Assembly: GCA_964589485.1 (NCBI GenBank)
Contig: CAZPRK010000001.1
Coordinates: forward strand, 184,401-248,400
Reading direction: 5' to 3'
Length of the DNA: 64,000 nt
Origin: an uncultured Methanosarcinales archaeon
Lineage (GTDB): Archaea; Nanobdellota; Nanobdellia; Woesearchaeales; CAYSVS01
Made by a program: the position numbers and the translations under genes. The notes under the pieces are model-generated. The model was not told the origin of the DNA, did not search any database, and worked only from the letters and a program-made list of their open reading frames with translations. Shown here one piece after another: positions 7,466-64,000 of this stretch; position 1 is the first letter of the stretch, and each line of letters opens with the position of its first letter.

Positions 7466-7486
7466 TCAATGAATTAATAATATTGT

Positions 7487-8146: not shown

Positions 8147-8205
8147 ATGTTAAGAAATTCTCGTTAGTTTATAAATGTTACTGTCGTAACACTACTTATA
8201 AGTAG

Positions 8206-21545: not shown

Positions 21546-21581
21546 GTGAGGTAAAAAATATGTTGTAGTTGTTTTTAAAGT

Positions 21582-22061
21582 TTACTCCTCATCACTTTTG
21601 ATTTGTTTATATTTATCAATAAATTCTTGAGTTTGTTTGTAATACTCTTTTAAAGATTCAATGTTTACATGAACAATCTCTTCTTTATCACTATTTTTTA
21701 TTGTAGAAATCATTGTAAGTTTTTTTCTAAATTCGCCTTCTTTTTTATAACTAGCTTTTAAAAGGCTTTTTAAGAATCCATAAAATTCTAAATGTGATTT
21801 AAGGTCTTGGTTATTTTCTTCTAATAGTTTAACTTTTGCAATGTTGTTATTAGGTATCTCAATAATTTTATTACTTTTTTCTAAATCATTTAAGTATCCA
21901 TTGATTACATGTTCCATGGCATCTACTAATCTACTAATTCCGTTTCTCATTATTTCAACTACTGCGCTATATTTTAAACTAACAAAAATTAGAAAGTCAG
22001 CCCTTTTTAGTTCAAATAATGAGTTTTCTAAAAACTCGTCCATTTCTAATAAGAATTCCAT
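21582..22061 (-). CDS. helical hypothetical protein, paralog of 20594..21082
   Basis: See the alignment blocks given for 20594..21082. Confidence 0.65.
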   Translation of the reverse strand: MEFLLEMDEFLENSLFELKRADFLIFVSLKYSAVVEIMRNGISRLVDAMEHVINGYLNDLEKSNKIIEIPNNNIAKVKLLEENNQDLKSHLEFYGFLKSLLKASYKKEGEFRKKLTMISTIKNSDKEEIVHVNIESLKEYYKQTQEFIDKYKQIKSDEE

Positions 22062-34946: not shown

Positions 34947-37900
34947 TTATTTTTTTGGTAATCCTATTATTAATGCTACGCATAGAGTAAGCATAGTAAA
35001 AAACATAATATTTGGTATGTATTTTATTGATTTTTTTGAATTTGATTCGTATATAGTTTCAAAATTTGATTCTTTTTTGTATTCAAGTGCGGTATTTATT
35101 TTGTTTATTTGATTTTGTAAAAATTGACTTTCTATAGTATTTTGGTTATTTGTGTTTATTTTAAGTTCTTTTATATCAATTATTCTATTTTTATCTTTTA
35201 AAATTAAGAAAAATATATTTTCACCAGAAAATAAACGTGCATTTATTTTAATATTTTTTTTAATATCGATTTTTTTACTTTGTAAGAATGATTTAAATTC
35301 CAAATCTAAATTTTCTTTTGCATTTATTTCTGCTAATAGTATAATTGAATCTTTATCTATTTCACTTGTTTTAAACTTTATTATTTTATCTTTATTTTCA
35401 ATAATTTTTATTTTTCTAGTAAGTTCTTTTGGAGTTTTTTGGTTGTCAATATATATTTTAACTTTAATATTATATTCTCCTGGTTTCATTTCGGAGATTA
35501 ATTCAGTATTTAGACCTATTGTAATTGATTTTTTATTATCTAAACTTATTTTTTGAATATTATGTTCTCTTGTAGGGGAATATGCTTTACTTCCTCGATA
35601 AACATATGAATATAATTCTATTTCTTTATCTTCTTTTCCATTATTGGTTAATTTCACATCAATTAAAAAATTTGTTCCTAGCTCAATTTCAGAGGGAATG
35701 TTTTCAATATAATATTCAAAATCTTTTTTTTCTAATTCTTTTTCAATTTCTACGTACTCTACATCACATAAATTTGAATCACCTTGAACTATGATATTTT
35801 TTGTCAAATTTGTTCCTATTCCTTCGATATTTATTTTATAAATTCCATCTTTTAATGCATTATTACAATTAGGTTTTAATTGGATTGGGATTGTTAAGTC
35901 ATAATCTAAATTTTTTGTTTCTAAGTTAAATGAAGTATCTTCTTGAGTTGCTTTATTTCCTTCTTCATCTTTTATTTCTATGGATATTGATTTTTTATTT
36001 GTATTGTTTTTGAAGATTTTTAATCTGATTTTAAAGATATTACCCCATTCTGATTCATTGTTTGTTAAGTGTATTTTGTGAATGTTAATTTGAGAATTCA
36101 CAGAGCTACTAATTGGAATAAATTCTTCTCCTTTTATTAAGATGTATTGGCTATCTGAATTATCATTTATATTTGAATCATTACAAGCTAAGAAAGATAA
36201 TCTTGAATGTATTACATATATTCTATCTTCTTCATCTATAGATTTGGTAAAAGATTTTTTATTTGTATTTGATGTATTTACTTTATTTTTGATTATGTTA
36301 TTAAATAAATCCTCAATCCAATATTCTATTAAATATGGAAAACTTTCATTATTTAATTCATTATAAAATTTAATACTTTGACTACTTGTTTCTACTTTGT
36401 TTTCTTTTGCTATATTTAGCGAAATATTACACGGAGTAGAAGATGTGTCTATTACTGTAATATTTTCGCAAAAATTTTGCTCTTCTATGTTTGCACATAA
36501 AAAATGTATACCTTCTTTTAATGGTAACCAATCGATACTTTTTTTTGATTTTTTTATTTTTAATTCTGAAGTATTTTTTTCTATAAGCGATGAATTTTTG
36601 GTTATATTGTAATTAATAGTTACATTACTTTCTTTATTACATGGCTTATAATTTTGATTTTCAATTTTAAATATATTTTTGTAAGGAAACTGCATTATTG
36701 CTTTTGTTTGATCGCATTTATTGTTTAGGCATAAAGTTATGCTAAAATTAGCATTTTCTTCTGTACAATAATAGTTTATTTCATATTCTGCAAAATTATT
36801 ATTTTTGTTGGTATCATTAATTCCGATATATGATAAATTAGCTTTAATTATTATTGATGTTTCTGAACTATTAGTGTTGGGCCTATATGATTTTTCATTT
36901 ATGTTTAATGTGGTTACTTTTTTTCTCAAAATTGTTCCAAATTCATTTTCAAACCAATAATCTATTTTGAATGGGTATGATGTATCTGAAATAAAGGGTT
37001 GAAATTTGATTGAATCTGGGTATTCGTATTCATTATATTCTGGAATAATTTCTAATGAAATATCTTCTTCAATTTTTTCAGTTTCTATAACTTCGAATTC
37101 TTGGCAATCTAAGGTAAATGGTTTTGATTTAATTTGTCCACATAGTTTGTACATTCCGTTCGTTAATTCAAGTGTTCCAGTATTTGAGGTCTTGCTACAT
37201 CCTATTTCAACTGTAAAGTTTTTATTTATTATTGTTGAATTATCTTCTGTAACGTTAAATAAAACTGTTACATTTTCTTTTATTCTACAATCCTTTTCTT
37301 TAATTTTTATTTGAAATAGATTCTTATATTCTGTGTTTTCAAATAAGAATTCATTTATTTTTGTTTTTAAGCTATGTCTTTCTTTTGGTTTTTTCTGATT
37401 TGCTTCGCCTGGAGTTGGTTCTGCTTCTTTCCATGTTTTATTTATTAATTGTAATGATTTTCCATTACCATCTCCGCCCATTGATGAATTGTAAATAAAA
37501 ATATCTTCTAAGTCACACCAAGTTGCTATATCATCGCATGAATCAAAGTCATAGTCCCAAATACAATTTTCTTGATCATCGCAATCAATATCGTTTTCGA
37601 ATTCTGAACATTCTATTTCTACTTCTTCTGATTCTCCGCACCACCATAATTCTATAAAATCTTCGCTATTTTTTAAGTTGTTACCTATTTTATCGCATAG
37701 TAAAAAACCATTTTTATCAAATTTCGGAACTCCGAAATCATCTAAGTTTATTGGATTAAAAATAAGATCTTTATTTGTGATTGAATCGTACAAAATGGAA
37801 TTACAAGGTGAAATTAAGATGTATGTTGCATTTGTGCCGTTGTCATACCCTCTTAGTTTTTGTTTATATTTATCATCGGAAATAAACCAATGATCATCAT

Positions 37901-38051
37901 ATTCTATCCAAATATTTGTTGGATTATATAGTTCGATGTATTCTTTACCGCTATCGCTTCCTTTTGGGTTGTACATAATTTCATTTACTTGTATTGCGGT
38001 TACTAAATTGATATTAATTATTATTAATAAAACTAATACTTTTTTATTCAT
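34947..38051 (-). CDS. large secreted, C-terminally anchored protein with an N-terminal lamin-tail domain (LTD)
   Basis: Signal/TM segment KKVLVLLIIININLVTA. LTD signature VNEIMYNPKGSDSGKEYIELYNP. Cys-rich acidic segment. C-terminal TM segment IMFFTMLTLCVALIIGL. Confidence 0.75.
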   Translation of the reverse strand: MNKKVLVLLIIININLVTAIQVNEIMYNPKGSDSGKEYIELYNPTNIWIEYDDHWFISDDKYKQKLRGYDNGTNATYILISPCNSILYDSITNKDLIFNPINLDDFGVPKFDKNGFLLCDKIGNNLKNSEDFIELWWCGESEEVEIECSEFENDIDCDDQENCIWDYDFDSCDDIATWCDLEDIFIYNSSMGGDGNGKSLQLINKTWKEAEPTPGEANQKKPKERHSLKTKINEFLFENTEYKNLFQIKIKEKDCRIKENVTVLFNVTEDNSTIINKNFTVEIGCSKTSNTGTLELTNGMYKLCGQIKSKPFTLDCQEFEVIETEKIEEDISLEIIPEYNEYEYPDSIKFQPFISDTSYPFKIDYWFENEFGTILRKKVTTLNINEKSYRPNTNSSETSIIIKANLSYIGINDTNKNNNFAEYEINYYCTEENANFSITLCLNNKCDQTKAIMQFPYKNIFKIENQNYKPCNKESNVTINYNITKNSSLIEKNTSELKIKKSKKSIDWLPLKEGIHFLCANIEEQNFCENITVIDTSSTPCNISLNIAKENKVETSSQSIKFYNELNNESFPYLIEYWIEDLFNNIIKNKVNTSNTNKKSFTKSIDEEDRIYVIHSRLSFLACNDSNINDNSDSQYILIKGEEFIPISSSVNSQINIHKIHLTNNESEWGNIFKIRLKIFKNNTNKKSISIEIKDEEGNKATQEDTSFNLETKNLDYDLTIPIQLKPNCNNALKDGIYKINIEGIGTNLTKNIIVQGDSNLCDVEYVEIEKELEKKDFEYYIENIPSEIELGTNFLIDVKLTNNGKEDKEIELYSYVYRGSKAYSPTREHNIQKISLDNKKSITIGLNTELISEMKPGEYNIKVKIYIDNQKTPKELTRKIKIIENKDKIIKFKTSEIDKDSIILLAEINAKENLDLEFKSFLQSKKIDIKKNIKINARLFSGENIFFLILKDKNRIIDIKELKINTNNQNTIESQFLQNQINKINTALEYKKESNFETIYESNSKKSIKYIPNIMFFTMLTLCVALIIGLPKK

Positions 38052-38189
38052 ATTTATGGGTATTTTTTTAGTCTTCTAAATGATTAGTTACTTCTTAATA
38101 ATGTTTTTCAAAATACTCTACTTCTTAGTGACTAGAAATGTTTTAATATTGCTTGTGTTTAAATGGCTATTGAGGAGGTGTGTTACATT

Positions 38190-38639
38190 ATGGGATTTTT
38201 AAATTTTTTAAAGAGAAATAAGAGTGATACTAATTTTAAGTTTCCTACTAAAGAGGAATTAGATATTCCTGTTGCTCCTGATTTTAAACATGAAGCTAAT
38301 CAAGAAGCTCCTGTGTTTCCTAGTTTTGATGAAGATGAAGCTCCTGTTACTTCAGAGGACTTTCATGAAGAAGAACCTTCATTTGAAGAAGAAGATGTGG
38401 AATTGCCAATTGAAAGGGAAACTGGAAAAAAACCACTTTTTGTAAAATCAAGTTATTTTAAAGCAGCAATAGATGATTTAACAATGGCTAGAAATACTTT
38501 AAATGAAGCTGACAAAATAGTTAATAGAATACAAGATTTTGATTCAGATCAGGATAAAGAGTTTGAAAAATGGAAAGGCCAGATTTTTGAAATTCAGCGA
38601 AAATTAGTTTATGCTGATAAAATGTTATTCGATAGGTGA
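38190..38639 (+). CDS. coiled-coil hypothetical protein (paralog of 38645..38884)
   Basis: I prefer the ATG at 38190 (MGFLNFLKRNK), which lies 9 nt after the SD-like GGAGGTG (38174-38180). The C-terminal block PLFVKSSYFKAAIDDLTMARNTLNEADKIVNRIQDF..DKEFEKWKGQIFEIQRKLVYADKMLF aligns with the next ORF. Confidence 0.6.
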   Translation: MGFLNFLKRNKSDTNFKFPTKEELDIPVAPDFKHEANQEAPVFPSFDEDEAPVTSEDFHEEEPSFEEEDVELPIERETGKKPLFVKSSYFKAAIDDLTMARNTLNEADKIVNRIQDFDSDQDKEFEKWKGQIFEIQRKLVYADKMLFDR

Positions 38640-38644
38640 TAAAT

Positions 38645-38884
38645 ATGGAAGATTTACATGAAACAATGCCTGTTTATGTTAAGATTGATGAATATAAGGG
38701 AGTTACTGATTTAATGAATGCAATTAGAGCAAAGGTTAATGATGCAAGAGCTACATTATCTAAAATTAATGACCTTAAAAATGAAGAAGATGCTGAACTT
38801 GAATTATGGCATACAGGATTAGAAGAAGTAGAACGAAAAGTTGATTTCGTTGATAAAGCGTTATTTGAACCATCAGCACTTTAG
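38645..38884 (+). CDS. coiled-coil hypothetical protein (paralog of 38190..38639)
   Basis: The ATG at 38645 is preceded by AGGTGA. The block PVYVKIDEYKGVTDLMNAIRAKVNDARATLSKINDLKNEEDAELELWHTGLEEVERKVDFVDKALF aligns with the previous ORF. Confidence 0.6.
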   Translation: MEDLHETMPVYVKIDEYKGVTDLMNAIRAKVNDARATLSKINDLKNEEDAELELWHTGLEEVERKVDFVDKALFEPSAL

Positions 38885-38895
38885 GTGAATAAATT

Positions 38896-39330
38896 ATGGC
38901 AAAAAAACAACATTCACAAAAACAATTTTTTTATGTCGGAATTAATGACCCTATTGAGATTAGACGATCATTACTTGAGTCATCAAAAGAAATGCTTCAA
39001 TTGTTAAAAAGAAATGAAAAGTTCAAAGAAGTAAGAAAAGAAAAGAAAGAAAACATTTCTAGACTTAAAGACGACATGAAAGAAATAAAGAAATTGTTTG
39101 CTAAGTTGAAATCTCTTTTACCTGTGCATCATTTAAGAATTATCTTGAAAGCTGAAAAAGATAAATTGATAAAACAAAAGGTAAGCACAGTCAAAAAGAA
39201 AAAAACAGTAGCTAAGAAAAAAGTTGCAACCGTTACTAAACAAAAAGTGAATAAGGAAGACTTAAGTGAATTAAAAAAGCTTGAGCAAGAACTAGCAAAC
39301 ATTGAAAATAAACTTGGCGGATTAGTTTAA
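38896..39330 (+). CDS. coiled-coil hypothetical protein with a Lys-rich segment
   Basis: AGGTGA lies 8 nt upstream of the ATG. FFYVGINDPIEIRRSLLESSKEMLQLLKRNEKFKEVRKEKKENISRLKDDMKEIKKLF shows the same beta-strand-plus-coiled-coil layout. It also carries KKKKTVAKKKVATVTKQK. Confidence 0.6.
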   Translation: MAKKQHSQKQFFYVGINDPIEIRRSLLESSKEMLQLLKRNEKFKEVRKEKKENISRLKDDMKEIKKLFAKLKSLLPVHHLRIILKAEKDKLIKQKVSTVKKKKTVAKKKVATVTKQKVNKEDLSELKKLEQELANIENKLGGLV

Positions 39331-39401
39331 GTTAACTTTATATATTTTTTATTAATTCTTTTTATTTTATGCGGATGTGCCGGAGTGGCCAAACGGGACA
39401 G

Positions 39402-39430
39402 TTCATTTAGTAGATATTAAATGAGTCTAT
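39402..39430 (+). other. tRNA-Leu intron 1 (29 nt, non-canonical position 30/31)
   Basis: BHB geometry: central helix GGAC (39396-39399) with GTCT (39425-39428). The 3-nt bulges are AG|T and AT|A. The inner 7-bp helix is TCATTTA/TAAATGA. Confidence 0.65.
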
Positions 39431-39437
39431 ACTCAAG

Positions 39438-39485
39438 TCATTTGAGTAATGAGGTCTATCAAGATCGATGAAATACTTGTGAGCC
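39438..39485 (+). other. tRNA-Leu intron 2 (48 nt, canonical position 37/38)
   Basis: BHB geometry: central helix CTCA (39432-39435) with TGAG (39480-39483). The bulges are AG|T (39436-39438) and CC|A (39484-39486). Confidence 0.7.
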
Positions 39486-39531
39486 ATCTGTTGGCTTAGT
39501 GTCTACGCAGGTTCGAACCCTGCCGTCCGCA

Positions 39532-39539
39532 TTTTTTTT
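39532..39539 (+). terminator. oligo-T terminator after tRNA-Leu
   Basis: TTTTTTTT directly follows the discriminator base. Confidence 0.45.
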
Positions 39540-39572
39540 AGAAATATGTGTAATTGGCCTAATATAGATAAT

Positions 39573-39878
39573 TTAATCATATCTTTCGATTAAATTAACT
39601 TTAAGCTTAGATAAAACAGGATTTTGTATTTTCTTCAAAACTAATTCTATTTTTACATCTTCAAATAAACTTTTTATAAAATCTTTAATTGGTTGAGGGT
39701 TTGTTTCTGAAATTAACGCAAATCTTACTATAGCTTCTTTATCTTGACCATTTTCTACAAGAAAGTTTATTTTATTATTAATTGCGAATTTTCTTAATCT
39801 ACCTCTAACTTTATTTTTTATTAATGGATTATTATTTGAACTAATTTCATATACATCCCATTCGATTATATTATTCAT
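39573..39878 (-). CDS. hypothetical protein (101 aa)
   Basis: ORF only. A weak acylphosphatase-like pattern (VRGRLRKFA...VENGQDKEAIVRFAL) is not enough for a call. Confidence 0.45.
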   Translation of the reverse strand: MNNIIEWDVYEISSNNNPLIKNKVRGRLRKFAINNKINFLVENGQDKEAIVRFALISETNPQPIKDFIKSLFEDVKIELVLKKIQNPVLSKLKVNLIERYD

Positions 39879-52640: not shown

Positions 52641-53570
52641 ATGTATAAAATAAAACAACTTCCTGAGGATTTTATAGTAAAAGAAGTTACAAATATAATC
52701 CCTAATAAGGGCCATTACAAATTATTTTGGATGACAAAAACTAATTTGAACACAAATCAAGCTGTAGATTTTATTTCAAAGAGATTAAATATTTCTAAAA
52801 AATTTATTGGATTTGCTGGAGCTAAAGATAAATTAGCTATAACAACTCAATTAATTTCAATAAAGTGTAATAAAAGAGTAGGAAAAATAAAAGATATTTC
52901 TTTAGAACCGTTTGGAGATTATAATCAAAAATTAGCATTAGGTGATCTAAAAGGAAATAATTTTGAAATTACTTTAAGAAATTTAGATTCTAGAATTAAT
53001 TTAACTAAAACTAAATTTATAAATACATTTGGAGATCAAAGGTTTTCTAAAAATAATGTAGAAATTGGAAAGTTAATATTACAAAAAAAGTTCAAAGAAG
53101 CAATAAATTTAATTTTAGAGTCTGATGGGTATTATGAAAAAAAAATAAATAGTTACATAAATAAAAATAAAACTGATTTTATAGGTGCTTTAAGGTTATT
53201 AGATAAAGTAACTTTGAAAATGTTTATTCATGCTTATCAAAGTAAGATTTGGAATGATTGTTCAGAAATTAACAAAAATCTAACCTTACCCTTAGTTGGA
53301 TTTGGAACTCATTTTCAGGATAATGAAATTGAAAAATTAATATTACAAAAGCTCGATAAAGATAAATTAACATTAAGAAGTTTCGTAATTCAATCAATTC
53401 CATACCTTTCTTCTGAAGGGGATGTAAGAGATTTATACATTGAGACTAAAATTGAGGAAGTTTCATTTGAAGATGATGAAATTAATAAAGGAAAGAAAAA
53501 ACAAATAATTAAATTTTATTTGCCAAAAGGATCTTATGCTACTGAAGTAATTAAACAATTATTTTCTTAA
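52641..53570 (+). CDS. truD: tRNA pseudouridine synthase D (TruD/Pus7 family)
   Basis: LPEDFIVKEV start. The catalytic block FIGFAGAKDKLAITTQ matches the family pattern gyaG.KDk.A.T.Q. Confidence 0.8.
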   Translation: MYKIKQLPEDFIVKEVTNIIPNKGHYKLFWMTKTNLNTNQAVDFISKRLNISKKFIGFAGAKDKLAITTQLISIKCNKRVGKIKDISLEPFGDYNQKLALGDLKGNNFEITLRNLDSRINLTKTKFINTFGDQRFSKNNVEIGKLILQKKFKEAINLILESDGYYEKKINSYINKNKTDFIGALRLLDKVTLKMFIHAYQSKIWNDCSEINKNLTLPLVGFGTHFQDNEIEKLILQKLDKDKLTLRSFVIQSIPYLSSEGDVRDLYIETKIEEVSFEDDEINKGKKKQIIKFYLPKGSYATEVIKQLFS

Positions 53571-54377
53571 TGCCATTATTTTATAACATAGTTTTGCTAA
53601 AGAAAACGCTTCACTTTGAAAATTTTCATTAGGTGAAAATTCTACAATGTCAGCTCCAATTACATTTTTATATGAAAAAATTATTTTTAAAATATTAATT
53701 ACATCATTCCAAAAAAATCCACCTGGTTCAGGAGTTCCAGTATTACGAATAAAACTAGGATCAAAACAATCTACATCTATAGAAATATAAACATCATTTT
53801 CTAATTCATTTAATTTTTCAATAAGTTTAGTTTCATTAAATTCATAAGCTTTAATGATATTAACATTTTGATTTTGTTTGATAACGTCACTTTCATCTTT
53901 ATCCATTGATCTAACTCCTATATTAAGAACTTTTTTATTACTTGCTATACTTTGTGCAACACATCTATGATTAAATTCAGAACCATTCCAACTATGAAAC
54001 ATATCAGGGTGAGCATCTAACATGATTACTGAACATTTTTTATCTTTAACGCATCCAATTGTAACTGAATGATCTCCACCTAAGCTAATAACAAATTTAT
54101 TTTTATGCTTTAAATGTTCATTTCTAATTTCGTTAAATGCAGCTTTTGGAGACATTTCATTTAGTTTCAAAGAAGGTAAAGTATGAATTCCCTTTTCAAA
54201 AGGTTCTACATCAAATTGTTCATCATAATATTCTAAATGTTGAGAAGCTTTTATTATTTCTTGACTTCCTTTAGATGCACCTTTACCATAAGTAAGACTT
54301 TTTTCATATTCAATAGGTAGGATGTAAAAGAAAGAATCTTCTTTACTATATTCTTCTGGTAAATTCATAAATTTCAT
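53559..54377 (-). CDS. speB: agmatinase (arginase/ureohydrolase family)
   Basis: Mn-ligand motifs GGDHSVT, LDAHPD, SIDVDCFDPSF and TPEPGG. Confidence 0.85.
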   Translation of the reverse strand: MKFMNLPEEYSKEDSFFYILPIEYEKSLTYGKGASKGSQEIIKASQHLEYYDEQFDVEPFEKGIHTLPSLKLNEMSPKAAFNEIRNEHLKHKNKFVISLGGDHSVTIGCVKDKKCSVIMLDAHPDMFHSWNGSEFNHRCVAQSIASNKKVLNIGVRSMDKDESDVIKQNQNVNIIKAYEFNETKLIEKLNELENDVYISIDVDCFDPSFIRNTGTPEPGGFFWNDVINILKIIFSYKNVIGADIVEFSPNENFQSEAFSLAKLCYKIMALRK

Positions 54378-54904
54378 TTTTCAAACCTATTCGCAATTAA
54401 TAAATATCCTATATCGTGAAATAATAAAGCTATCCAAATTAAAATATTACCAATAAAAAATCCTACTATTAATGTAATAATCTCTAGAATTGGTCTAGCT
54501 GATATTATTTTTTTAATTGTTTTATTTTTAATATGTAGTTTATCAAAATAATCATTAAAAAATTCTTCTACTACACAAATTATTGTAAAAAGAGATAATA
54601 AACTTAAACTATCAAATGATAAATTGAATACATAAAATAACAAAAAAGTAATACCTACTCCTGTATAATGTGCTGGAGCATCAATCTTTTTAGAAATAAT
54701 TAATCCAAAAATAATACCCATCCATAACGGAATAATAAAAGTAAACCTATACATAGTATAAAAAAGTAATAACCCATACATTGCACCTAATAATATTCTT
54801 ATAAAAATATTAGAGGTTTTTTTTGTATCTTCTAAATAATCTGAGTATTTTACTATAACCCCTGTAAAAAAACAAAGTAATATTAGAATAATTATATCGT
54901 TCAT
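54374..54904 (-). CDS. polytopic membrane protein (hypothetical), ATGA-coupled on both sides
   Basis: 176 aa with about 6 hydrophobic helices. 4-nt overlaps with both the SpeH-DHS fusion and the agmatinase gene. Confidence 0.6.
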   Translation of the reverse strand: MNDIIILILLCFFTGVIVKYSDYLEDTKKTSNIFIRILLGAMYGLLLFYTMYRFTFIIPLWMGIIFGLIISKKIDAPAHYTGVGITFLLFYVFNLSFDSLSLLSLFTIICVVEEFFNDYFDKLHIKNKTIKKIISARPILEIITLIVGFFIGNILIWIALLFHDIGYLLIANRFEK

Positions 54905-56229
54905 TCTATATCCTCATATTGCATATAAGTTGCAAGTAACGGGAATACAATTGTAGCATCGGATTCAATGCATACACTATTTCCTGATTTTTTTATTTTA
55001 CTCCAAGATTTAGCTTCTTTTGGTCTTGCACCTGAAAGTGAACCATCACCTTCGCTTGAAGTTGTTACATATATTGCATAATCAAGACCTTCTCTAAGTA
55101 TATTGACTCCTATTAAATGATGCTTTGCAATACCTCCTCCAAGAATAATTCCTGCAGTTTTATCTGCAGATAATACTTTATCTGCTAATTTTTTCATGTC
55201 TCCAGTAACATCAATACCAAAATCTGGGTTTTTTTGTTTAAAGAAATACAATTGTAACCCTATTGCCCCATCTGTTATTCCTGGACAAAAAATAGGTATA
55301 TTATTTTTAGTTGCCCAATATAAAATTGAATTTTCATCATTAATATTTTCACCTAGTTTGTATATAAATTCAGAAGGAGAAATTAATTTATTTTTTTCAG
55401 TTTGTTCTTTATTGAGTTTATGAAAAAAAGGAGTTAATACATCTTCTAATTTTTCATATCTGTCATCTGGTATAAAAATATTACCAACTCTGTTAATTCT
55501 TTTTTTATGTAATTCTATATCACTTACTTCAAAGTTTCCTAATAAGAATGGTTTATCTACTTTCATTAAATCTTCTTCAATTGATCCAGTTGAAGTAATT
55601 ATGGCATCTACTAATTTATGTTTTACCAATTGAGCAAAAATTTCTCTTAAGCCAGAACTTACCATATTTGAAGTAAAGCTAAGAAAAGTTGTTGCTTTTT
55701 CTTTTTTTATTTTTGAGAGTATTTCTGTTGCTTGTCCAAGGTGTGTTGCTTGAAATCCAATTTGTTTCATATCTTTTAATAATTCAATGATTTTTTTATC
55801 TTTAGATAATTCAAAACCTTTTATTTGATCTAATTTATCATTAGATTCATTTGTTAAAGTATGACCTCTTGAAATAACATTTGTTTCAACTTTTTCTGCA
55901 TTAAATTTTTCTTTAATATATTCTATTGCTTTATCATAATTAAATTCTTTACAACTAAATATATCTGCGCTTAAAAATTTTTTATTGGGGTAAGTGTGGA
56001 TTGCAATATGACTTTCGGCTACTATGACAAAACCAGTAATTCCACTTTCATTTGTATTTTCATGAGTGTATCTAACTACTTTTGGTTCTGTTATTTTATT
56101 CATTCCTATTAATTCAGGTAATTGGTTTAATATATTTTCAACTAATTCTTTATTATTAAGATCACTTGAACAGTTAAAAGCATCTATAGTTAGGTGATTT
56201 CCATCTCCATGTGTAGTTTTGGTCTCCAT
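54901..56229 (-). CDS. dys: fusion protein: pyruvoyl-type S-adenosylmethionine decarboxylase (SpeH-like, N-terminal about 125 aa) plus deoxyhypusine synthase (C-terminal about 315 aa)
   Basis: The N-terminal part HLTIDAFNC...GITGFVIVAESHIAIHTYPNKKFLSADIFSC contains the E-S-H self-cleavage motif of SpeH. The C-terminal part has GFQATHLGQA, SNMVSSGLREI, VDAIITSTGSIEEDL, RVGNIFIP, GGGIAKHH and EAKSWSKI (DHS catalytic Lys context). Confidence 0.8.
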   Translation of the reverse strand: METKTTHGDGNHLTIDAFNCSSDLNNKELVENILNQLPELIGMNKITEPKVVRYTHENTNESGITGFVIVAESHIAIHTYPNKKFLSADIFSCKEFNYDKAIEYIKEKFNAEKVETNVISRGHTLTNESNDKLDQIKGFELSKDKKIIELLKDMKQIGFQATHLGQATEILSKIKKEKATTFLSFTSNMVSSGLREIFAQLVKHKLVDAIITSTGSIEEDLMKVDKPFLLGNFEVSDIELHKKRINRVGNIFIPDDRYEKLEDVLTPFFHKLNKEQTEKNKLISPSEFIYKLGENINDENSILYWATKNNIPIFCPGITDGAIGLQLYFFKQKNPDFGIDVTGDMKKLADKVLSADKTAGIILGGGIAKHHLIGVNILREGLDYAIYVTTSSEGDGSLSGARPKEAKSWSKIKKSGNSVCIESDATIVFPLLATYMQYEDIE

Positions 56230-56308
56230 TTGGGCTAGAATGAGTATTTTCTTTATAAAGATTATTTAAAAAAGCCTCCGGCGAGAATTGCACTCGCGAC
56301 CTGCAGAT

Positions 56309-56323
56309 TGCTTGCATACCAGC
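56309..56323 (-). other. tRNA-Thr intron 2 (15 nt, canonical 37/38)
   Basis: The central helix is CTTG (positions 32-35) with CAAG of the intron. The bulges are TA|G and CA|A. Confidence 0.65.
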
Positions 56324-56330
56324 TACAAGT

Positions 56331-56346
56331 TTCGACCAATTAAATT
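56331..56346 (-). other. tRNA-Thr intron 1 (16 nt, position 30/31)
   Basis: In tRNA-sense numbering, the central helix is CGGC (nt 25-28) with GTCG (nt 41-44, one G.U pair). The bulges are AG|A and AA|A. The inner helix is essentially absent (relaxed BHB/BHL). Confidence 0.55.
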
Positions 56347-56422
56347 CTGCCGCAATAGCTACTATGCTACGGAGGCATAGTATAAATTAAAGAGAAAATA
56401 TTACTGTTTAAAAAGCTTACCT

Positions 56423-57797: not shown

Positions 57798-58994
57798 ATG
57801 CAAATAGGAGTAGTAGGAAAACCAAGTGTAGGGAAGTCAACTTTCTTCAAAGCTGCCACATTGGCAGAAGTAGAAATAGCTAATTATCCATTTACTACCA
57901 TTAAACCAAATGAAGCAGTTGGTTATGTGAAAATCGATTGCGTAGATAATTTTTTTGAAAAACAATGTAATCCAAGGGAAGGATATTGTTTAAAACATAA
58001 TAGGTTTATCCCTGTACAGATGATTGATGTTGCAGGTTTAGTCCCTGGAGCACATGAAGGGTTAGGTATGGGGAATCAATTTTTAGATGATTTAAGGCAA
58101 GCTGATGTTCTTATACATGTAATAGATATATCTGGAAGTACAAATGAAAAAGGAGAGCCAGTAGAAGTAGGAGCTTATAATCCTGAAAAAGATATTAAAT
58201 TTTTAGAGCTTGAATTAGATATGTGGTATTTTGGAATATTAAAGAAAGGTTGGGATAAGTTTGCAAGACAAATACAACAAGAAAAACAAGAAGTTCACAA
58301 AGCTTTAGGTAAACAATTATCTGGGTTAAAGGTAGATGAAGACATGGTTAAGAATGTAATAGCGAAATTAAGTTTAAATTCTGAAAATCCTTCATCTTGG
58401 ACTGAAGAAAATTTAAAACAAATATCAACTGAATTAAGAAAATTAACCAAACCTATGATTATAGCATGTAACAAGATAGATGCTGACATTAAAAATAATT
58501 ACGAAAGGATTAAACAACTACACCAAGATTACATATTAATTCCATGTAGTGCTGAATCTGAATTAGCATTAAAAGAAGCAGCCAAAAATAATTTGATAGA
58601 TTATGTTCCTGGAGAAAATGATTTTAATATTATTAAGAAAGAATCTTTAATTGAAAATCAAAAAAAAGCTTTATTGTTTATTAAAGAAAATATTTTAACA
58701 AAATTTAATTCAACTGGAATACAGGAAGCTTTAGATACAGCGGTGTTTAAGTTATTAAACTATGCTGCAATTTATCCTGGAGGTGTTAATAACTTAACAG
58801 ATCAACATGGAAATACTCTTCCTGATTGTTTTTTAATGCCGCCTAAATCTACTGCTTTAGATTTTGCTTATAGACTTCACACTGATTTTGGTAAAAATTT
58901 TATAAGGGCAATTGATGTTAAAACAAAAAGAACTGTTGGCAAAGAACATCCATTAAATCAAGGGGACGTAATTGAGATAATAAGTAATCGTTAA
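57798..58994 (+). CDS. Obg-family GTPase (YchF/DRG-like) with C-terminal TGS domain
   Basis: G1 GVVGKPSVGKST; G3 DVAGLV; G4 CNKID; C-terminal TGS-like ..KRTVGKEHPLNQGDVIEI. Confidence 0.8.
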   Translation: MQIGVVGKPSVGKSTFFKAATLAEVEIANYPFTTIKPNEAVGYVKIDCVDNFFEKQCNPREGYCLKHNRFIPVQMIDVAGLVPGAHEGLGMGNQFLDDLRQADVLIHVIDISGSTNEKGEPVEVGAYNPEKDIKFLELELDMWYFGILKKGWDKFARQIQQEKQEVHKALGKQLSGLKVDEDMVKNVIAKLSLNSENPSSWTEENLKQISTELRKLTKPMIIACNKIDADIKNNYERIKQLHQDYILIPCSAESELALKEAAKNNLIDYVPGENDFNIIKKESLIENQKKALLFIKENILTKFNSTGIQEALDTAVFKLLNYAAIYPGGVNNLTDQHGNTLPDCFLMPPKSTALDFAYRLHTDFGKNFIRAIDVKTKRTVGKEHPLNQGDVIEIISNR

Positions 58995-60502
58995 GTAACA
59001 TCAACAGCATTAGTTCCTTTTTTTAAAACAACTTTAGCTATTACTTGATTTCTTCCATTATTTTTTGCATCATACAAAGCTTTATCTGCTTCATTGATTA
59101 ATTCTTGTGGTGACAAAGATGCATCCATGCATGTAAGTAACCCCATACTTATTGTTACTTTTTTATTAGGTTGACTTTCTCTATTGAAAAATTTAGTATT
59201 TGCAACATTTTCTACAACTCTTTTTGCAGCAGTAAGAATTTCACTAGGTTTAATTTCCGGAAAAACTATTATAAATTCTTCTCCTCCATATCTTCCTACT
59301 GTATCTATGTCTCGTACAGAATCTTTTAAAACTTTAGAACATTCTTCAAGTAACACATCACCTTTTGGATGTCCGTTTGTATCATTGTAATGTTTAAAAT
59401 GATCTATGTCCAACATTGCAATAGAAATGCTATGTTGAAATCTTTTACTTCTAGAAATTTCTTGTTCAAGGACATCCATAAATTTTAATCTATTATATAA
59501 CCCTGTTAATTTATCTGTGATTGCTGTTTCTTTTATTAGTTCATATTGTTTAGCGTTATTGATAGCAATACTTGCTTGATTTGCAATGATTGAAAATAAT
59601 TCTATGTTTTGTTTTAATTTTTCAATTGAACTTTCATAAATGTTTAAAACTCCAAGTAAAACACCTTGACTAATTATAGGGAGACTAAATAATGCATCAT
59701 AAATAGTAAAATTAGCTTTTGAATTAAACCGTTTATCTTTAGATAAATTAGCTATTCCTCTACTTTTTTTATCTTTTAAAATTTCTTTAATCATTTTAGT
59801 TTCAAAGTCAGTATAATGCGTAGGTAAGGAAGATTCATTAAGTGTAAATCTTCTCATAGGGTTAAAAATAACAACTGAACACATTTTAGCGAAATTATTT
59901 GTAACTATAAATCTAATAATCTCTGTCATTATTTTTTTTATTTCTAAAGTTGAATTTAATAGGTTACTTATAGACTCTAACATTGACAATGCGGATAATT
60001 TTTTACGGCTAACTAATGCAGAGTTGATAAACATTGGAATATTATGTGAAAAAACTTCACTGATTTGTTTATAGTATGGAGAATCAGGTTTAATTAATTT
60101 AGAAAATGCATCTTTTAATTCATCTTCTTCTATGTTTAATTGTTTTGATATTTCTTGAAATTCAGCTTCGTTACTTTCTATTTGAAAAACAATTCCACCG
60201 ATTATTTCATTTCTAATATTTATCGGATAAATTATGTTAGAAACTAAATTTGAACATTTAAATTCTATAAAGTTTTTTTTTTCTCGTTTTAATCTATTAA
60301 GATAATGTTTATAACTTTCTTTGCAATTTAGTTTACCTTTATCTTTAGTTTTAACTAATTTACAATAATATGGTAAGTTACTATTATGTAATTCATTACC
60401 AAACAAATCTACTAATGATATTTTAGTTTTGTATATGTTAGAAATTTGATCTTGTAACTTTGTCCAAACTTTTATATCTAAGTGTTCTTTGATGTCAACC
60501 AT
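58991..60502 (-). CDS. PocR-GAF-GGDEF diguanylate cyclase
   Basis: The C-terminal domain reads DKLTGLYNRLKFMDVLEQE...IAMLDIDHFKHYNDTNGHPKGDVLL...VRDIDTVGRYGGEEFIIVF...SMGL...ADKALYDAKNNGRNQV. The catalytic GGEEF is intact. The RxxD I-site (RDID) lies 5 residues upstream, as in PleD. The guanine-specifying N (..YND) and D (..KGD) are kept. The N-terminus has a PocR-like LPYYCKLVKTKDKGKLNCKESY. The middle region is GAF-sized. Confidence 0.85.
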   Translation of the reverse strand: MVDIKEHLDIKVWTKLQDQISNIYKTKISLVDLFGNELHNSNLPYYCKLVKTKDKGKLNCKESYKHYLNRLKREKKNFIEFKCSNLVSNIIYPINIRNEIIGGIVFQIESNEAEFQEISKQLNIEEDELKDAFSKLIKPDSPYYKQISEVFSHNIPMFINSALVSRKKLSALSMLESISNLLNSTLEIKKIMTEIIRFIVTNNFAKMCSVVIFNPMRRFTLNESSLPTHYTDFETKMIKEILKDKKSRGIANLSKDKRFNSKANFTIYDALFSLPIISQGVLLGVLNIYESSIEKLKQNIELFSIIANQASIAINNAKQYELIKETAITDKLTGLYNRLKFMDVLEQEISRSKRFQHSISIAMLDIDHFKHYNDTNGHPKGDVLLEECSKVLKDSVRDIDTVGRYGGEEFIIVFPEIKPSEILTAAKRVVENVANTKFFNRESQPNKKVTISMGLLTCMDASLSPQELINEADKALYDAKNNGRNQVIAKVVLKKGTNAVDVT

Positions 60503-61599
60503 TTAATTACCCTTTCTTTGAAAATTTGTTTATCTTTTTTTAAGATTCTTCCGCCTGCTGCTGGTTTATGGCCTCCTCCGCCTGCTTTTTCTAAGCCATC
60601 AGTTGCAAATTCAAGCAAATCATTCATTTCCAGTTTATTATCTCTTCTTCTTGCACTTATTGTTATTTGTTCGTCATTTTCTGTTTCCTGTAATATTACT
60701 ACTGTTTTATTCGGAAAATCGTAACTTAAAAAAGTGCATAGGTTACTTTTAACTGGAAATTTAGGGTTAATTAATTCATAATAAATTAAAGATAATTCTT
60801 CATTTATTTCAGCTTTTTCATTTACTGAAAATCTCCACAATTTAATTTCTTTTTCAATTTCTTCTTTGTATTTTACTAATTCTGAATTTAATAAATCTTT
60901 GTGCGATGTAGCATTGTATACTAAATAATATGCATCTTTTATTTTATTTATATCATAAGCTTCAGTGCTGCTAAGGATTTCTGCAATTTGACCTATTTCA
61001 TTTCTAAATGGATCTTTGTGTAGTGGGATATTATATTTTTCCATTGTGCTTTCTACAAATTCTTGCCATGTTTGATACCCGCAATCTCCAATTATTCCTA
61101 TGCATGAAACCCAATCTAACTCTTCCATATTGATTAATTGGCTAAATATATCATAAGTAAATTTTGCAGTACAATATTGAGAAGGGTTAACATTTTCATA
61201 TATCATGTCTGGTTTAATTATTGTAATTCTATCTGAATTTAAATCTCGATATATTTTATGGTGATCTATAACTAAAATTTCTGCAAATTCTGCAACTTTT
61301 TCAATAAAATTTTCAGAGACATCTTGATCTAAAGCCATGTCTGTAGTTATTACTTTGTTTATATTATGTTTTTTAAGTTCTTCCATTGTAGATTCAGCTA
61401 CAAAAATTTCATATGATTTTTGATTTATTCTAAAATCTATTTTTTTATTTCTTAATTTTTCAACTCCTTTAGAGGTTATAACTCCTGAAGTAACTCCATC
61501 TGGATCTGTATGGTGAAAAACTGCAACTCTATCTTCTTCAGTAATGTTTTTAAGAAATTGGTGTGCTTTATTCAATAATTCTTCGTTGATTAATTTCAT
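60478..61599 (-). CDS. DHH/DHHA1-family phosphoesterase (NrnA/RecJ-like)
   Basis: Motifs VFHHTDPDGVTSG, ITTDMALD, VIDHH (DHH), and DHHA1 GGGGHKPAAGG. The 3' end overlaps the GGDEF gene start by 25 nt. Confidence 0.8.
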   Translation of the reverse strand: MKLINEELLNKAHQFLKNITEEDRVAVFHHTDPDGVTSGVITSKGVEKLRNKKIDFRINQKSYEIFVAESTMEELKKHNINKVITTDMALDQDVSENFIEKVAEFAEILVIDHHKIYRDLNSDRITIIKPDMIYENVNPSQYCTAKFTYDIFSQLINMEELDWVSCIGIIGDCGYQTWQEFVESTMEKYNIPLHKDPFRNEIGQIAEILSSTEAYDINKIKDAYYLVYNATSHKDLLNSELVKYKEEIEKEIKLWRFSVNEKAEINEELSLIYYELINPKFPVKSNLCTFLSYDFPNKTVVILQETENDEQITISARRRDNKLEMNDLLEFATDGLEKAGGGGHKPAAGGRILKKDKQIFKERVIKWLTSKNT

Positions 61600-61624
61600 G
61601 GGTTGAGAATTTAATAGATACTAT

Positions 61625-61921
61625 TTATAATTTGTGTTCATAGTATGCTGGGACAAATATGTCGATATATTTATTTAATGCTGTGTTGATAGATCTTTCT
61701 TGTTCTTGCCATTTTTGATCCCATTCTTTATAAAATGTACTTGGACTAATGCTATTTCTATGTTGTTCCATTATTTTAATAGAAAATGTTTCAATTCTTT
61801 CTTCTAATTGTGATTTTGCATCTGGAACGAATTTTTTTTCATTTGGTTTAATTTTCAGAGTTAAACTTTTATATACATTACTTTGAGACAAATTTTGCAT
61901 AAATCCTTGTATTACTCCCAT
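61625..61921 (-). CDS. hypothetical protein (98 aa), first gene of the DHH-GGDEF transcription unit
   Basis: The ORF ends 26 nt upstream of the DHH gene. A TATA-like TTTTAAAA lies about 28 nt upstream of its ATG. Confidence 0.5.
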   Translation of the reverse strand: MGVIQGFMQNLSQSNVYKSLTLKIKPNEKKFVPDAKSQLEERIETFSIKIMEQHRNSISPSTFYKEWDQKWQEQERSINTALNKYIDIFVPAYYEHKL

Positions 61922-62358: not shown

Positions 62359-63315
62359 GTGTTTAAAATTCATATAAGACGATTAGTTAAATCTGGTGAA
62401 GCTAGCCATACTGTTTCTTTACCTAAAAATTGGATAGATGATAATAAATTATCTAGGGGAGATTTGATTTATATTCAGGAAAATCCTAATAATGAGTTAG
62501 TAGTAACTTCAAATCCTCAAGAAAGAAAGAGGGAAGTTAAAGAAATAACGATTAATGTAGATGGTAAAAAGTTAGATTCTATTCAAAGAGAAATTACATC
62601 TGCTTATATTAATAATTATAATTCAATTACAATCATTGGTAAAGAATTGAGTACTATTATTAAGGAAATACGTCAAATTTTACATGATTTTGTAGCTCTT
62701 GAAATTAGTGAACAAACTGCAACTAAAATTGTTGCTAATGATTTGCTTAATGTTGATGAACTCTCTGTTGAAAAAACTATTAGAAGGATGGATATGATTG
62801 TTAGAAGTATATTGCAAGATTCATTGGCAGCATTAGATGGTGAAGATTTGCATGAAAGTATAGTTTGTAGGGATTTGGATGTTAATAGACAATATTTTTT
62901 AGTTTACCGTATTCTTAAAAGTGCCATGAAAGATAAAAACATTTGTAAAAGTTTTGGTTTAGATACTGTACAAGCTCATTATTATTGGTATTTATCAGTT
63001 AATTTAGAAAATTTAGCAGATCAAAGTAAAAATATTAGTCAACTTTTACGAGATACTAAAGTTAAAAAAGATGAAGAAATTAGGGAGTTATATTCAAAAA
63101 TGGAAAAAGCTTATTTGGATGTTATGAAATCTTTTTTTAATAAAAATGTTGCTTTGGCAGAAACTATTAATTCTTTTAGAAGATCTTATTCTGAAGAATT
63201 AGATGAGTTTTTTAAATTAAATAATAAACCAGAAATTGCACAGATTGTTGGTAACTTACGAGAAATGTCAACTTTAATTAGTAATATATCTAGGATTGTA
63301 ATGGATTATAGTTAA
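62359..63315 (+). CDS. PhoU-family phosphate-signalling regulator with N-terminal SpoVT/AbrB domain (archaeal architecture); GTG start
   Basis: The N-terminal RRLVKSGEASHTVSLPKNWIDDNKLSRGDLIYI is an AbrB-like swapped hairpin. It is followed by two PhoU-like helical repeats (..RRMDMIVRSIL.., ..LENLADQSKNISQL..). Confidence 0.7.
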   Translation: MFKIHIRRLVKSGEASHTVSLPKNWIDDNKLSRGDLIYIQENPNNELVVTSNPQERKREVKEITINVDGKKLDSIQREITSAYINNYNSITIIGKELSTIIKEIRQILHDFVALEISEQTATKIVANDLLNVDELSVEKTIRRMDMIVRSILQDSLAALDGEDLHESIVCRDLDVNRQYFLVYRILKSAMKDKNICKSFGLDTVQAHYYWYLSVNLENLADQSKNISQLLRDTKVKKDEEIRELYSKMEKAYLDVMKSFFNKNVALAETINSFRRSYSEELDEFFKLNNKPEIAQIVGNLREMSTLISNISRIVMDYS

Positions 63316-63695
63316 TCTTTATTTTTCCTGAAATTATCCATTGTAGTAGCAACATCAATCATATACTTACCATCTTCTAATCTGTATACTAATGCGTTAT
63401 CTTTGTTGAATAATTTAACTAAGTCAAGTTCAAATTTTCCTGGCGCGGATATATTTACTGATTCGAAATCAAGAACAATTGGTTCCTCTTTTTCATTCTT
63501 ACCTATAATTTCTTTAACATCGGTTTCTATTTTTTCAACATCTTCTTTAGTTAATTTTTCAGTAACGTTTTTTGCTTTTTGAACTTTATCTTTTTTTACA
63601 TAAAAAAATAATTTTGCACCGCATGTACAACCAGTTAAAATAGCGGCATTTCCATCTTCATAAAATTTACTGCATCTTACGCATTGGTGTGGCAT
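63312..63695 (-). CDS. zinc-ribbon protein conserved in archaea (COG3364/DUF2072-like)
   Basis: N-terminal MPHQCVRCSKFYEDGNAAILTGCTCGAKLFFYV (CxxC...CxC). Confidence 0.5.
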   Translation of the reverse strand: MPHQCVRCSKFYEDGNAAILTGCTCGAKLFFYVKKDKVQKAKNVTEKLTKEDVEKIETDVKEIIGKNEKEEPIVLDFESVNISAPGKFELDLVKLFNKDNALVYRLEDGKYMIDVATTMDNFRKNKD

Positions 63696-63696
63696 T

Positions 63697-63927
63697 TTAT
63701 TTTTTACGTCTCCTTTTTAGATTGCCTGTAAATAATTGAATTTTGTTAGGATCTCTTTTAATTTCTTTAACAACGCTAGCTGGGCCAATTACAGTAAAAC
63801 CTAACCTGTCACCTAAAAGAACATTAAAAAATGTATTTTTGATTTTATTAAGAAAATCTGAATCTTTTTTTTCAGGGTATACAACTGCTAACTCTATTCC
63901 TTTAAAATCTTTGTTTACTTCTTCCAT
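63697..63927 (-). CDS. small hypothetical protein (possibly DUF2073-like), 1 nt upstream of the Zn-ribbon gene
   Basis: 76-aa ORF. GIELAVVYPEKKD...VIGPASVVKEI. Its true start is uncertain because it lies near the window end. Confidence 0.4.
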   Translation of the reverse strand: MEEVNKDFKGIELAVVYPEKKDSDFLNKIKNTFFNVLLGDRLGFTVIGPASVVKEIKRDPNKIQLFTGNLKRRRKK

Positions 63928-64000
63928 AGTTGTTTTGATTAATTCTGTTTCTTCATCTTTTTTTAATCTTCCTTGAAGTAAAACTATTTTTTTTTCTTTT

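Follow-up and report, generated by a model that had tools for sequence, protein, structure and literature searches.

A putative diguanylate cyclase with sensor domains in a Woesearchaeota-like DPANN archaeon and its RecJ-like DHH/DHHA1 neighbour

A stretch of 64,000 nucleotides (nt) of archaeal contig CAZPRK010000001.1 (GenBank assembly GCA_964589485.1), here called the window, carries on its minus strand a gene for a PocR-GAF-GGDEF protein with the features of a diguanylate cyclase, and directly upstream of it a gene for a DHH/DHHA1 phosphoesterase. Reviews up to 2023 describe diguanylate cyclases as almost exclusively bacterial, and cyclic di-GMP (c-di-GMP) as undetected in any archaeon (PMC10249747, PMC8646023). 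GGDEF hits in metagenome-assembled genomes of DPANN and Asgard archaea have been mentioned in a single sentence (PMC8646023), and one author cautions that such domains in archaea still "need to be confirmed in archaeal contigs" (PMC10086821). Given this mention and the automatic annotation at NCBI, the bare existence of an archaeal GGDEF domain is not new. In the literature searched, no paper was found on the cyclase family described here or its conserved catalytic state, on the arvABC-PhoU-DHH-GGDEF-YchF gene neighbourhood, or on a co-inherited RecJ-like/GGDEF pair or its fusion. The two genes and their parts are as follows (aa, amino acids).

58991..60502, minus strand: gene for the predicted PocR-GAF-GGDEF diguanylate cyclase, 503 aa (open reading frame (ORF), Pfam and NCBIfam)
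60023..60484, minus strand: PocR sensory domain, aa 7-160 (PF10114, 66.5 bits against a cut-off of 23.9)
59561..59941, minus strand: GAF domain, aa ~188-314 (PF01590/PF13185 and secondary structure of the AlphaFold2 (AF2) model)
59045..59524, minus strand: GGDEF catalytic domain, aa 327-486 (PF00990, 154.9 bits against a cut-off of 23.8)
60478..61599, minus strand: gene for a compact RecJ-like DHH/DHHA1 phosphoesterase, 373 aa (Pfam DHH and DHHA1)
60478..60502, minus strand: overlap of the DHH stop codon (TAG) and the GGDEF start codon (ATG), 25 nt, ATGGTTGACATCAAAGAACACTTAG, read from the sequence

The predicted cyclase and its archaeal host

Searches with hidden Markov models (HMMs) placed all five domains (PocR, GAF, GGDEF, DHH and DHHA1) above their Pfam cut-offs. 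In the 503-aa protein the Pfam GAF match spans aa 238-314 (26.7 bits, cut-off 22.4), and the GGDEF domain is also recognised by the NCBIfam model TIGR00254 (167.2 bits, cut-off 37.4). In the AF2 model (predicted local-distance difference test score, pLDDT, 87) the PocR domain has a PAS-like fold, with strands within residues 28-110 that form an antiparallel sheet with flanking helices (residues 10-134), and the GAF domain is flanked by long helices of 40 residues (144-183) and 29 residues (300-328), the linkers being coiled-coil-like. Long helices of this kind are a device of parallel dimeric sensor cyclases, and we infer that the window cyclase dimerises as well. Two cysteines of the PocR domain, Cys47 and Cys83, are nearly invariant in the family alignment. 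The structural matches found with Foldseek are sensor diguanylate cyclases, including IsPadC, and the GGDEF domain of WspR could be aligned to the cyclase with a root-mean-square deviation (rmsd) of 2.2 Å and 40% identity.

In the alignment to DgcR (6zxm) the characteristic motifs appear as LDIDHF, HYND...GHPKGD and RDID-TVGRY-GGEEF, giving the residue set D365/D367, N373, D382, R397xxD400, R404, G406-G-E-E-F410 and K480. The RxxD motif (R397-D-I-D400) of the inhibitory site (I-site) lies five residues upstream of GGEEF, the PleD-like spacing that the initial annotation of this DNA had reported. All functional positions lie at a constant offset of 38 from the PleD numbering, D365 corresponding to PleD D327 (metal binding), N373 and D382 to N335 and D344 (guanine contacts), R397xxD400 to R359xxD362 (I-site), R404 and K480 to R366 and K442 (phosphate binding), and GGEEF 406-410 to GGEEF 368-372 (active-site motif). 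Across an alignment of 29 family members D365, D367, N373, D382, D400, R404, GGEEF and K480 never vary, and R397 of the I-site is replaced in three. The catalytic residues are likewise kept in all 20 GGDEF proteins whose genes are linked to a DHH gene, and RxxD is lost in some short GAF-GGDEF relatives; the RxxD site occurs in many members of the GGDEF family at large, albeit not in all. As the serine of Hypr-type enzymes is absent, the predicted substrate is GTP. Thus the initial description of a complete GGDEF domain, with an N and a D that specify GTP rather than Hypr-type use, was borne out both by the scores, which are far above cut-off, and by the invariance of the catalytic residues, N373 and D382 among them. 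That every catalytic residue is kept across a family with identities below 30% argues for selection on catalysis. With these invariant residues, a canonical fold and a native position in the genome, the 503-aa protein is very probably a working diguanylate cyclase, as far as can be judged from sequence and model.

A homologue search of 5.8 billion proteins yielded about 30 full-length PocR-GAF-GGDEF relatives of about 500 aa with 28-77% identity, several of which carry the NCBI name 'diguanylate cyclase [Candidatus Woesearchaeota archaeon]'. Below a sharp drop in score follow bacterial GAF-GGDEF proteins that align with the C-terminal half only. Among 1.84 billion representatives, about 57 clusters at 50% identity match the cyclase profile from end to end, and divergence within the family extends to less than 30% identity. 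The sensor half as a query (aa 1-320) retrieved the five closest relatives only and did not reveal the source of the PocR-GAF part.

Like the bacterial sensor cyclases PleD, WspR, DgcR, the GAF-GGDEF proteins and IsPadC, the window cyclase has complete sets of catalytic, GTP-specifying and I-site residues, and it shares with them an N-terminal sensor connected to GGDEF by long helices; the domains of WspR and DgcR have about 40% identity to its GGDEF domain. It differs from them in its host, a DPANN archaeon, in its fixed archaeal neighbourhood, and in the lack of EAL, HD-GYP and PilZ partners in the window. Its family forms a separate group, which a Kimura distance of 0.7 or more sets apart from the closest bacterial domains. 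The GGDEF domain itself is likely to have come from bacteria in the distant past. A protein of 1525 aa (P0345) has an N-terminal PocR-GAF-GGDEF part followed by PAS-GAF-PAS-GGDEF-EAL, an architecture of bacterial type, from which it follows that the sensor-cyclase module is not exclusive to archaea; this protein may mark the donor lineage. A scan of GTDB contigs with the family alignment hit generic GGDEF patterns and returned bacterial loci only (L004-L083), and is uninformative on archaeal taxonomy.

The contig itself is archaeal. Rfam identifies on it the archaeal forms of RNase P RNA (129.9 bits) and of signal recognition particle RNA (121.9 bits), and it encodes PCNA, NAC, Rpb3-type RpoD, TruD, an S13-S4-S11-RpoD-L13-S9 block and OapC. 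Together with an intron-containing tRNA, these features uphold the earlier argument that the archaeal flanks speak against bacterial contamination. A check of composition across 57-62 kb had also been proposed, and both tetranucleotide usage and GC content proved to be continuous: GC is 0.22-0.32 throughout the window with no step at 57-62 kb, and the tetranucleotide correlation across 57-63 kb is 0.98-0.99 compared with a window mean of 0.972. The codon usage of the two genes correlates with that of the other long genes at 0.966 and 0.945. The window belongs to an ENA scaffold of 305,963 bp, scaffold_26 of ERZ23498905. Another sample yielded a second assembly in which gene order is unchanged and ~5.5 kb differ by 1 mismatch, and homologues with 28-59% identity lie in the same archaeal neighbourhood. 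The continuous composition and the independent assembly with the same gene order exclude contamination, chimerism and recent transfer.

The DHH/DHHA1 protein and its pairing with the cyclase gene

The 373-aa protein scores above the Pfam cut-offs for DHH (35.0 bits) and DHHA1 (35.6 bits), and its motifs I (DxD), II (D), III (DHH) and IV (D), the SxRR segment and GGGH are intact. Invariant in 38 homologues are D32, D34, D87, D112-H-H114, D172, S315, R317 and GGH342-344. The top NCBIfam model is RecJ_archaeal (NF053576), yet with 76.3 bits against a cut-off of 360; the GAN_nuclease model (NF053575) gives 31.9 bits (cut-off 850), and the model for NrnA-type nanoRNases/pAp phosphatases (NF053633) 14.8 bits (cut-off 350). 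When a profile of the DHH family was run against the sequences of the PDB, the following scores were obtained.

MjaRecJ2: 70.8 bits
P. furiosus RecJ (PfuRecJ): 69.9 bits
T. kodakarensis GAN: 65.2 bits
S. aureus RecJ: 48.4 bits
M. thermautotrophicus RecJ-Cdc45: 46.5 bits
PAP phosphatase: 37.0 bits
DhhP: 31.0 bits
TmPDE (5o1u): 30.5 bits
GdpP: 20.6 bits

The AF2 model of the protein (pLDDT 96) has archaeal RecJs as its top Foldseek matches (E ~1e-18), among which ranks the PAP phosphatase 8a8k (TM 0.73/0.85, rmsd 3.2 Å); NrnA, GdpP and PggH follow at E 1e-12 to 1e-8. The alignments to 5x4h and 7bhi comprise 470-490 columns, so that about 100 residues of the targets are unpaired, and these would correspond to the GINS-binding (CID-like) insertion domain of GAN. 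With 373 aa compared to ~430-480 aa for archaeal RecJ/GAN/Cdc45, and without this insertion, the protein appears as a compact member of the archaeal RecJ branch. The archaeal RecJ family (GAN/RecJ-Cdc45 of Thermococcus, Pyrococcus and Methanothermobacter, and MjaRecJ2) has the DHH motifs I-IV and GGGH in common with it, at only 14-16% identity; no description of a coupling of these RecJ genes to a GGDEF gene was encountered in the papers found. The nanoRNases and dinucleotide phosphodiesterases NrnA, Pde2, PggH and DhhP and the archaeal PAP phosphatase, whose kind of function is the one proposed below for the window protein, resemble it in size and two-domain layout, but the kinship in sequence is weak (14.8 bits against 350 for the NrnA type, 37 bits for the PAP phosphatase). 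The c-di-AMP phosphodiesterase GdpP (YybT) combines a PAS-like sensor, GGDEF and DHH/DHHA1, as is the case here, and one relative (P0020) is also single-chain. In GdpP, however, the order is reversed; the genes here are usually separate, membrane helices are lacking and GGDEF is intact, and the DHH part has far less similarity to GdpP (20.6 bits) than to the archaeal RecJs (65-71 bits).

An assignment of the DHH protein as a dedicated cyclic-dinucleotide phosphodiesterase of the NrnA/GdpP/Pde2 type, to which the initial annotation pointed, could therefore not be maintained, as its nearest solved relatives are archaeal RecJs and its family is commoner than the GGDEF genes. Firm clustering with archaeal RecJ/GAN, which the same annotation had named as an argument against its own reading, was found in part: the nearest relatives are indeed RecJs, but the scores are far below the curated cut-offs and the insertion of about 100 residues is absent. 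By its motifs and relatives, the protein is a compact, predicted-active enzyme of the archaeal RecJ branch and a general gene of this archaeal group. In one relative lacking GGDEF (locus L131, 4989-8067) the DHH gene overlaps the start of a gene for a Rad50-like ATPase (AAA_23, Rad50 zinc hook), which hints at a DNA-repair role for the RecJ-like family.

The gene neighbourhood was studied in the contigs of homologues and in 80 metagenome loci retrieved with the DHH alignment, which were scanned with HMMs built from the cyclase family and from the window neighbours. The recurrent order is small GTPase/OapB/OapC (+), PhoU-AbrB (-), DHH (+), GGDEF (+) and YchF-TGS GTPase (-), the last of which follows GGDEF in most GGDEF-positive loci. 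PhoU and DHH are adjacent in 37 loci, with or without GGDEF. Of the 42 unbiased loci that extend 1.5 kb or more past the DHH gene, 11 have a GGDEF gene next to it in the same orientation, to which three truncated cases can be added. Among the DHH proteins nearest to that of the window (HMM score at least 470), GGDEF is present in 15 loci and absent in 6. Where GGDEF partners lack PocR, they are shorter GAF-GGDEF proteins. In the GGDEF-negative loci the gene after DHH varies, and includes sugar epimerases, IMP dehydrogenase, dCTP deaminase, deoxyhypusine synthase (DHS) and the overlapping Rad50-like ATPase.

The overlap of 25 nt claimed for the window was read directly from the sequence, and the equivalent junctions in L084, L085, L088, L094 and L095 overlap by 8-19 nt. 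The 20 DHH-GGDEF pairs are arranged as follows.

1 of 20 pairs: single in-frame ORF of 871 aa, DHH-DHHA1-PocR-GAF-GGDEF (L001; one contig only)
6 of 20 pairs: overlap of 8-25 nt
2 of 20 pairs: gap of 25 or 103 nt
11 of 20 pairs: gap of 264-506 nt, a spacing that counts against a functional unit

In L088 the overlapping pair is found amid entirely different neighbour genes. In a neighbour-joining (NJ) tree of the DHH proteins all GGDEF-positive loci fall within one large part, where they group into coherent subclades with a few GGDEF-negative clades in between, and the basal clades have no GGDEF. The nearest-neighbour groups of the GGDEF domains match the DHH subclades, which indicates co-inheritance, presumably after one early gain and with losses since. 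Judged from its arrangement, the DHH gene is the tightly coupled upstream neighbour of the cyclase gene.

In one locus without PhoU and DHH (L172, 6484-9446) the PocR-GAF-GGDEF gene directly follows arvC on the same strand, with a gap of 85 nt. In another (L002, 7094-7873, minus strand, GCA_028279725.1) a short GGDEF gene of 259 aa, divergent from PocR-GAF-GGDEF, replaces PhoU and DHH; its product could be a second cyclase or a receptor.

Other genes of the window

The genes on either side of the pair, and the tRNA, are the following.

61625..61921, minus strand: doubtful ORF of 98 aa, no Pfam match above cut-off
62359..63315, plus strand: PhoU with AbrB/MazE-type regulator (Pfam), divergent from the DHH gene
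63312-63695, minus strand: arvC/oapC (PF09845, 82.9 bits)
63697 to the window end (64000), minus strand: 3' part of arvB/oapB, frame open to the window end
57798..58994, plus strand: YchF-related GTPase with TGS domain (NF007171/PRK09602, 551.7 bits), convergent with the GGDEF gene
56273..56376, minus strand: intron-containing tRNA of 104 nt (RF00005, 48.2 bits), 33-nt insertion in the anticodon arm

The initial annotation described the 98-aa ORF, DHH and GGDEF as lying head to tail on the minus strand; the coordinates are right, but the ORF is not a conserved part of the unit, as no homologue was found in more than 90 related loci. A weak similarity (26% over 66 aa, E 0.006) connects it with aa 252-317 of the deoxyhypusine synthase encoded in the window. 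As a DHS gene lies beside DHH in some relatives (L152, L134), the ORF may be the remnant of a decayed gene. The PhoU-AbrB neighbour was confirmed by Pfam. The protein first called an Obg/TGS GTPase is a GTPase with a TGS domain, but a YchF-related one (PRK09602, 552 bits), and its gene overlaps the 3' end of the GGDEF gene by 4 nt. The tRNA was matched by a focused Rfam search, having been missed by ARAGORN and by the whole-window Rfam search with default filters, and is probably the 'tRNA-Thr' of the initial annotation; a CUUGUAG heptamer would fit Thr-UGU.

The next gene on the parent scaffold (L173) is arvA, and OapC, OapB and the GTPase are seen there at 6871-8288. The cyclase gene is always near the arvA/arvB/arvC (oapABC) operon (window 63312-64000, L173, L172, L002 5690-9572). 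In Haloferax volcanii the GTPase of the ArvA/B/C operon, which corresponds to the Oap genes, drives the formation of extracellular vesicles, and homologues are present in DPANN (PMC10927574). A functional link between the cyclase and arvABC is speculative. Origin-type repeats were sought in the 440-nt spacer between PhoU and the 98-aa ORF; only short AT-rich chance repeats were seen there and a replication-origin role of the spacer was dropped, the Oap genes being better read as ArvABC (PMC10927574). A scan for sigma-70 promoters and terminators gave nothing above shuffled sequences, with a bacterial model that is not applicable to archaea.

Elsewhere in the window, a gene at 54901-56229 (minus strand) encodes a 442-aa protein in which S-adenosylmethionine decarboxylase (aa 12-122) is fused to deoxyhypusine synthase (aa 149-435), which may be a fusion of the hypusine/polyamine pathway; an arginase-family gene (53559-54377) adjoins it, and in relatives a stand-alone DS gene is found (L084, 311 aa). 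The 875-aa protein encoded at 1772-4399 (plus strand) contains an intein (Intein_splicing aa 70-496, with a LAGLIDADG homing endonuclease), its host part being without Pfam match at E<=1e-5. Two adjacent ORFs of 1335 aa (Laminin_G_3, Big_13) and 892 aa at 22954-29572 (minus strand) are the window's only compositional outlier (tetranucleotide r 0.89-0.91), and probably encode surface proteins or adhesins. Pfam gave no match at E<=1e-5 for the 1034-aa protein at 34947-38051 (minus strand), nor for several proteins of 100-160 aa at 20594-22061 and 38163-39878.

Proposed circuit and competing explanations

Sequence and model show that long helices connect the PAS-like PocR domain and the GAF domain with a canonical GGDEF domain. 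We propose that the cyclase would dimerise via these helices, that a small-molecule or redox cue at PocR/GAF would set the helix register, and that two GTP-loaded GGDEF domains would then meet to form c-di-GMP, with product inhibition presumably exerted through the RxxD I-site. The cyclase gene is translationally coupled to the upstream gene for the compact RecJ-family DHH/DHHA1 phosphoesterase, and this enzyme would remove the signal through hydrolysis of pGpG, and perhaps of c-di-GMP as well, in addition to a housekeeping nuclease or nanoRNase role that it may keep as in relatives without the cyclase. For the combined statement, namely that a Woesearchaeota-like DPANN archaeon has a native cyclase, inherited vertically and gated by its sensor, and that the DHH protein clears the signal, we consider the chances to be even. 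The part assigning the DHH protein to the cyclase as its degradative partner is put forward tentatively, at a little short of even chances. A functional link between the two is argued from the coupling, the fusion and the L088 case. In addition, the stand-alone DHH/DHHA1 enzyme RecJ-like of D. radiodurans, there a NrnA homologue, cleaves dinucleotides and c-di-AMP (PMC11229311).

Several observations weigh against this reading. The DHH protein belongs to the archaeal RecJ/GAN/RecJ2 branch and not to that of NrnA/GdpP/PggH; GGDEF is absent after DHH in 31 of the 42 informative metagenome loci; and when residues separating GGDEF-linked from unlinked DHH proteins were sought in the catalytic motifs, none were found. 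A DHH protein that is widespread without GGDEF and has the same motifs points to a role that is not specific to c-di-GMP, and this, taken with its closeness to the RecJs, argues that its primary job lies elsewhere. In the archaeon P. yayanosii, a pAp phosphatase of the DHH type acts on neither c-di-GMP nor pGpG (PMC8268124), so that the DHH fold is no guarantee of such activity. Conversely, cyclase relatives occur without an adjacent DHH gene in L002 and L172, and in L086 the relative lies 6 kb from DHH, with a restriction-modification insertion in between. The phylogeny of the GGDEF domain that had been called for was made by NJ: all archaeal domains group together, but with a bootstrap of only 34/100, by which a single acquisition is suggested, not shown. 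Finally, no c-di-GMP receptor was recognised among the window proteins. What stands of the make-and-break module first proposed is thus a co-inherited pair with six overlaps, one fusion and the L088 arrangement; what speaks against it is the place of the DHH protein on the RecJ branch, the loci without GGDEF and the shared motifs.

The search for further parts of a c-di-GMP circuit covered about 62 proteins of the 64-kb window with Pfam and found no EAL, HD-GYP, PilZ or MshEN domain, and no c-di-GMP riboswitch was present in the window at the Rfam gathering threshold. In 0.71 Mb of related loci no EAL domain was detected by phmmer, a search of low power, as the bacterial control gave 1 match in 1.25 Mb. 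No PADLOC defence-system model matched the cyclase or the DHH protein, and a reading of the region as a defence island was dropped.

The same observations can be explained if the two genes are independent neighbours, the main competing explanation, which we regard as possible, albeit less likely than not. The DHH protein would then be a housekeeping RecJ-like nuclease (GAN/Cdc45-like in replication, or acting in repair or RNA turnover), next to which a GAF-GGDEF gene was inserted downstream in an ancestor and stayed through the syntenic stability of the arvABC-PhoU-DHH region, c-di-GMP, if made, being removed otherwise or by dilution. This agrees with the profile and fold relatives of the protein (archaeal RecJ, GAN, RecJ-Cdc45 and RecJ2), with the position of DHH beside PhoU/arvC in 37 loci regardless of GGDEF, with the variable genes that follow it elsewhere, including the Rad50-like ATPase of L131, with the identical catalytic motifs of both DHH groups, and with the presence of GGDEF near arvABC without DHH (L002, L172). 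It is less easily reconciled with start/stop overlaps in six loci and one in-frame fusion, with the pair being kept in L088 though all other neighbours differ, and with a DHH protein that lacks the GAN insertion and reaches only 76 bits for RecJ_archaeal against a cut-off of 360.

A reversed, GdpP-like logic would likewise agree with the translational coupling and with the 871-aa fusion; PocR-GAF-GGDEF would then be mainly a regulatory subunit that binds GTP or c-di-GMP plus a ligand and gates the DHH enzyme in a complex, with no diffusible messenger. GdpP itself is a single chain with PAS, GGDEF and DHH/DHHA1 parts (PMC11229311), GGDEF_GdpP weakly matches one GGDEF partner, and the lack of a recognised receptor in the window would be accounted for. 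The GGDEF domain of GdpP is degenerate, however, whereas here all catalytic residues are conserved in a family with less than 30% identity, many members of which have no adjacent DHH gene, and we hold this arrangement to be improbable. That the segment is bacterial, by contamination, chimeric assembly or very recent transfer, can be practically dismissed: the great majority of GGDEF, GAF and PocR domains belong to bacteria, the next-best matches are bacterial GAF-GGDEF proteins and the module recurs at the N-terminus of the 1525-aa bacterial-type multidomain protein, but the segment cannot be told from the remaining contig by its composition or codon usage, the genes are embedded among archaeal ones on a 306-kb scaffold that was assembled independently in the same order, and homologues with 28-59% identity share the neighbourhood.

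Returning to the sensor-gated cyclase with a DHH partner, its furthest extension would be a DPANN c-di-GMP circuit in which a PocR/GAF-gated cyclase is served by a RecJ-family DHH enzyme replacing EAL/HD-GYP, and which is perhaps wired to arvABC; in this complete form it is unlikely. For one lineage, the 306-kb scaffold, the independent reassembly and a diverse syntenic family provide the confirmation of GGDEF in an archaeal contig. The question of c-di-GMP in archaea is thereby reduced to two simple enzyme assays, and a candidate non-canonical degradation route, by a RecJ-like DHH enzyme, as well as a candidate physiological context, the ArvA vesiculation operon, can be named. A c-di-GMP circuit of their own would imply a new activity for archaeal RecJ proteins, and wiring to arvABC would tie it to the surface, vesicle or host-contact behaviour of these episymbionts. 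Should the DHH protein be only a housekeeping nuclease, the cyclase would still be a clean example of a signalling enzyme of bacterial origin that was taken up long ago and fully domesticated by an archaeon with a reduced genome.

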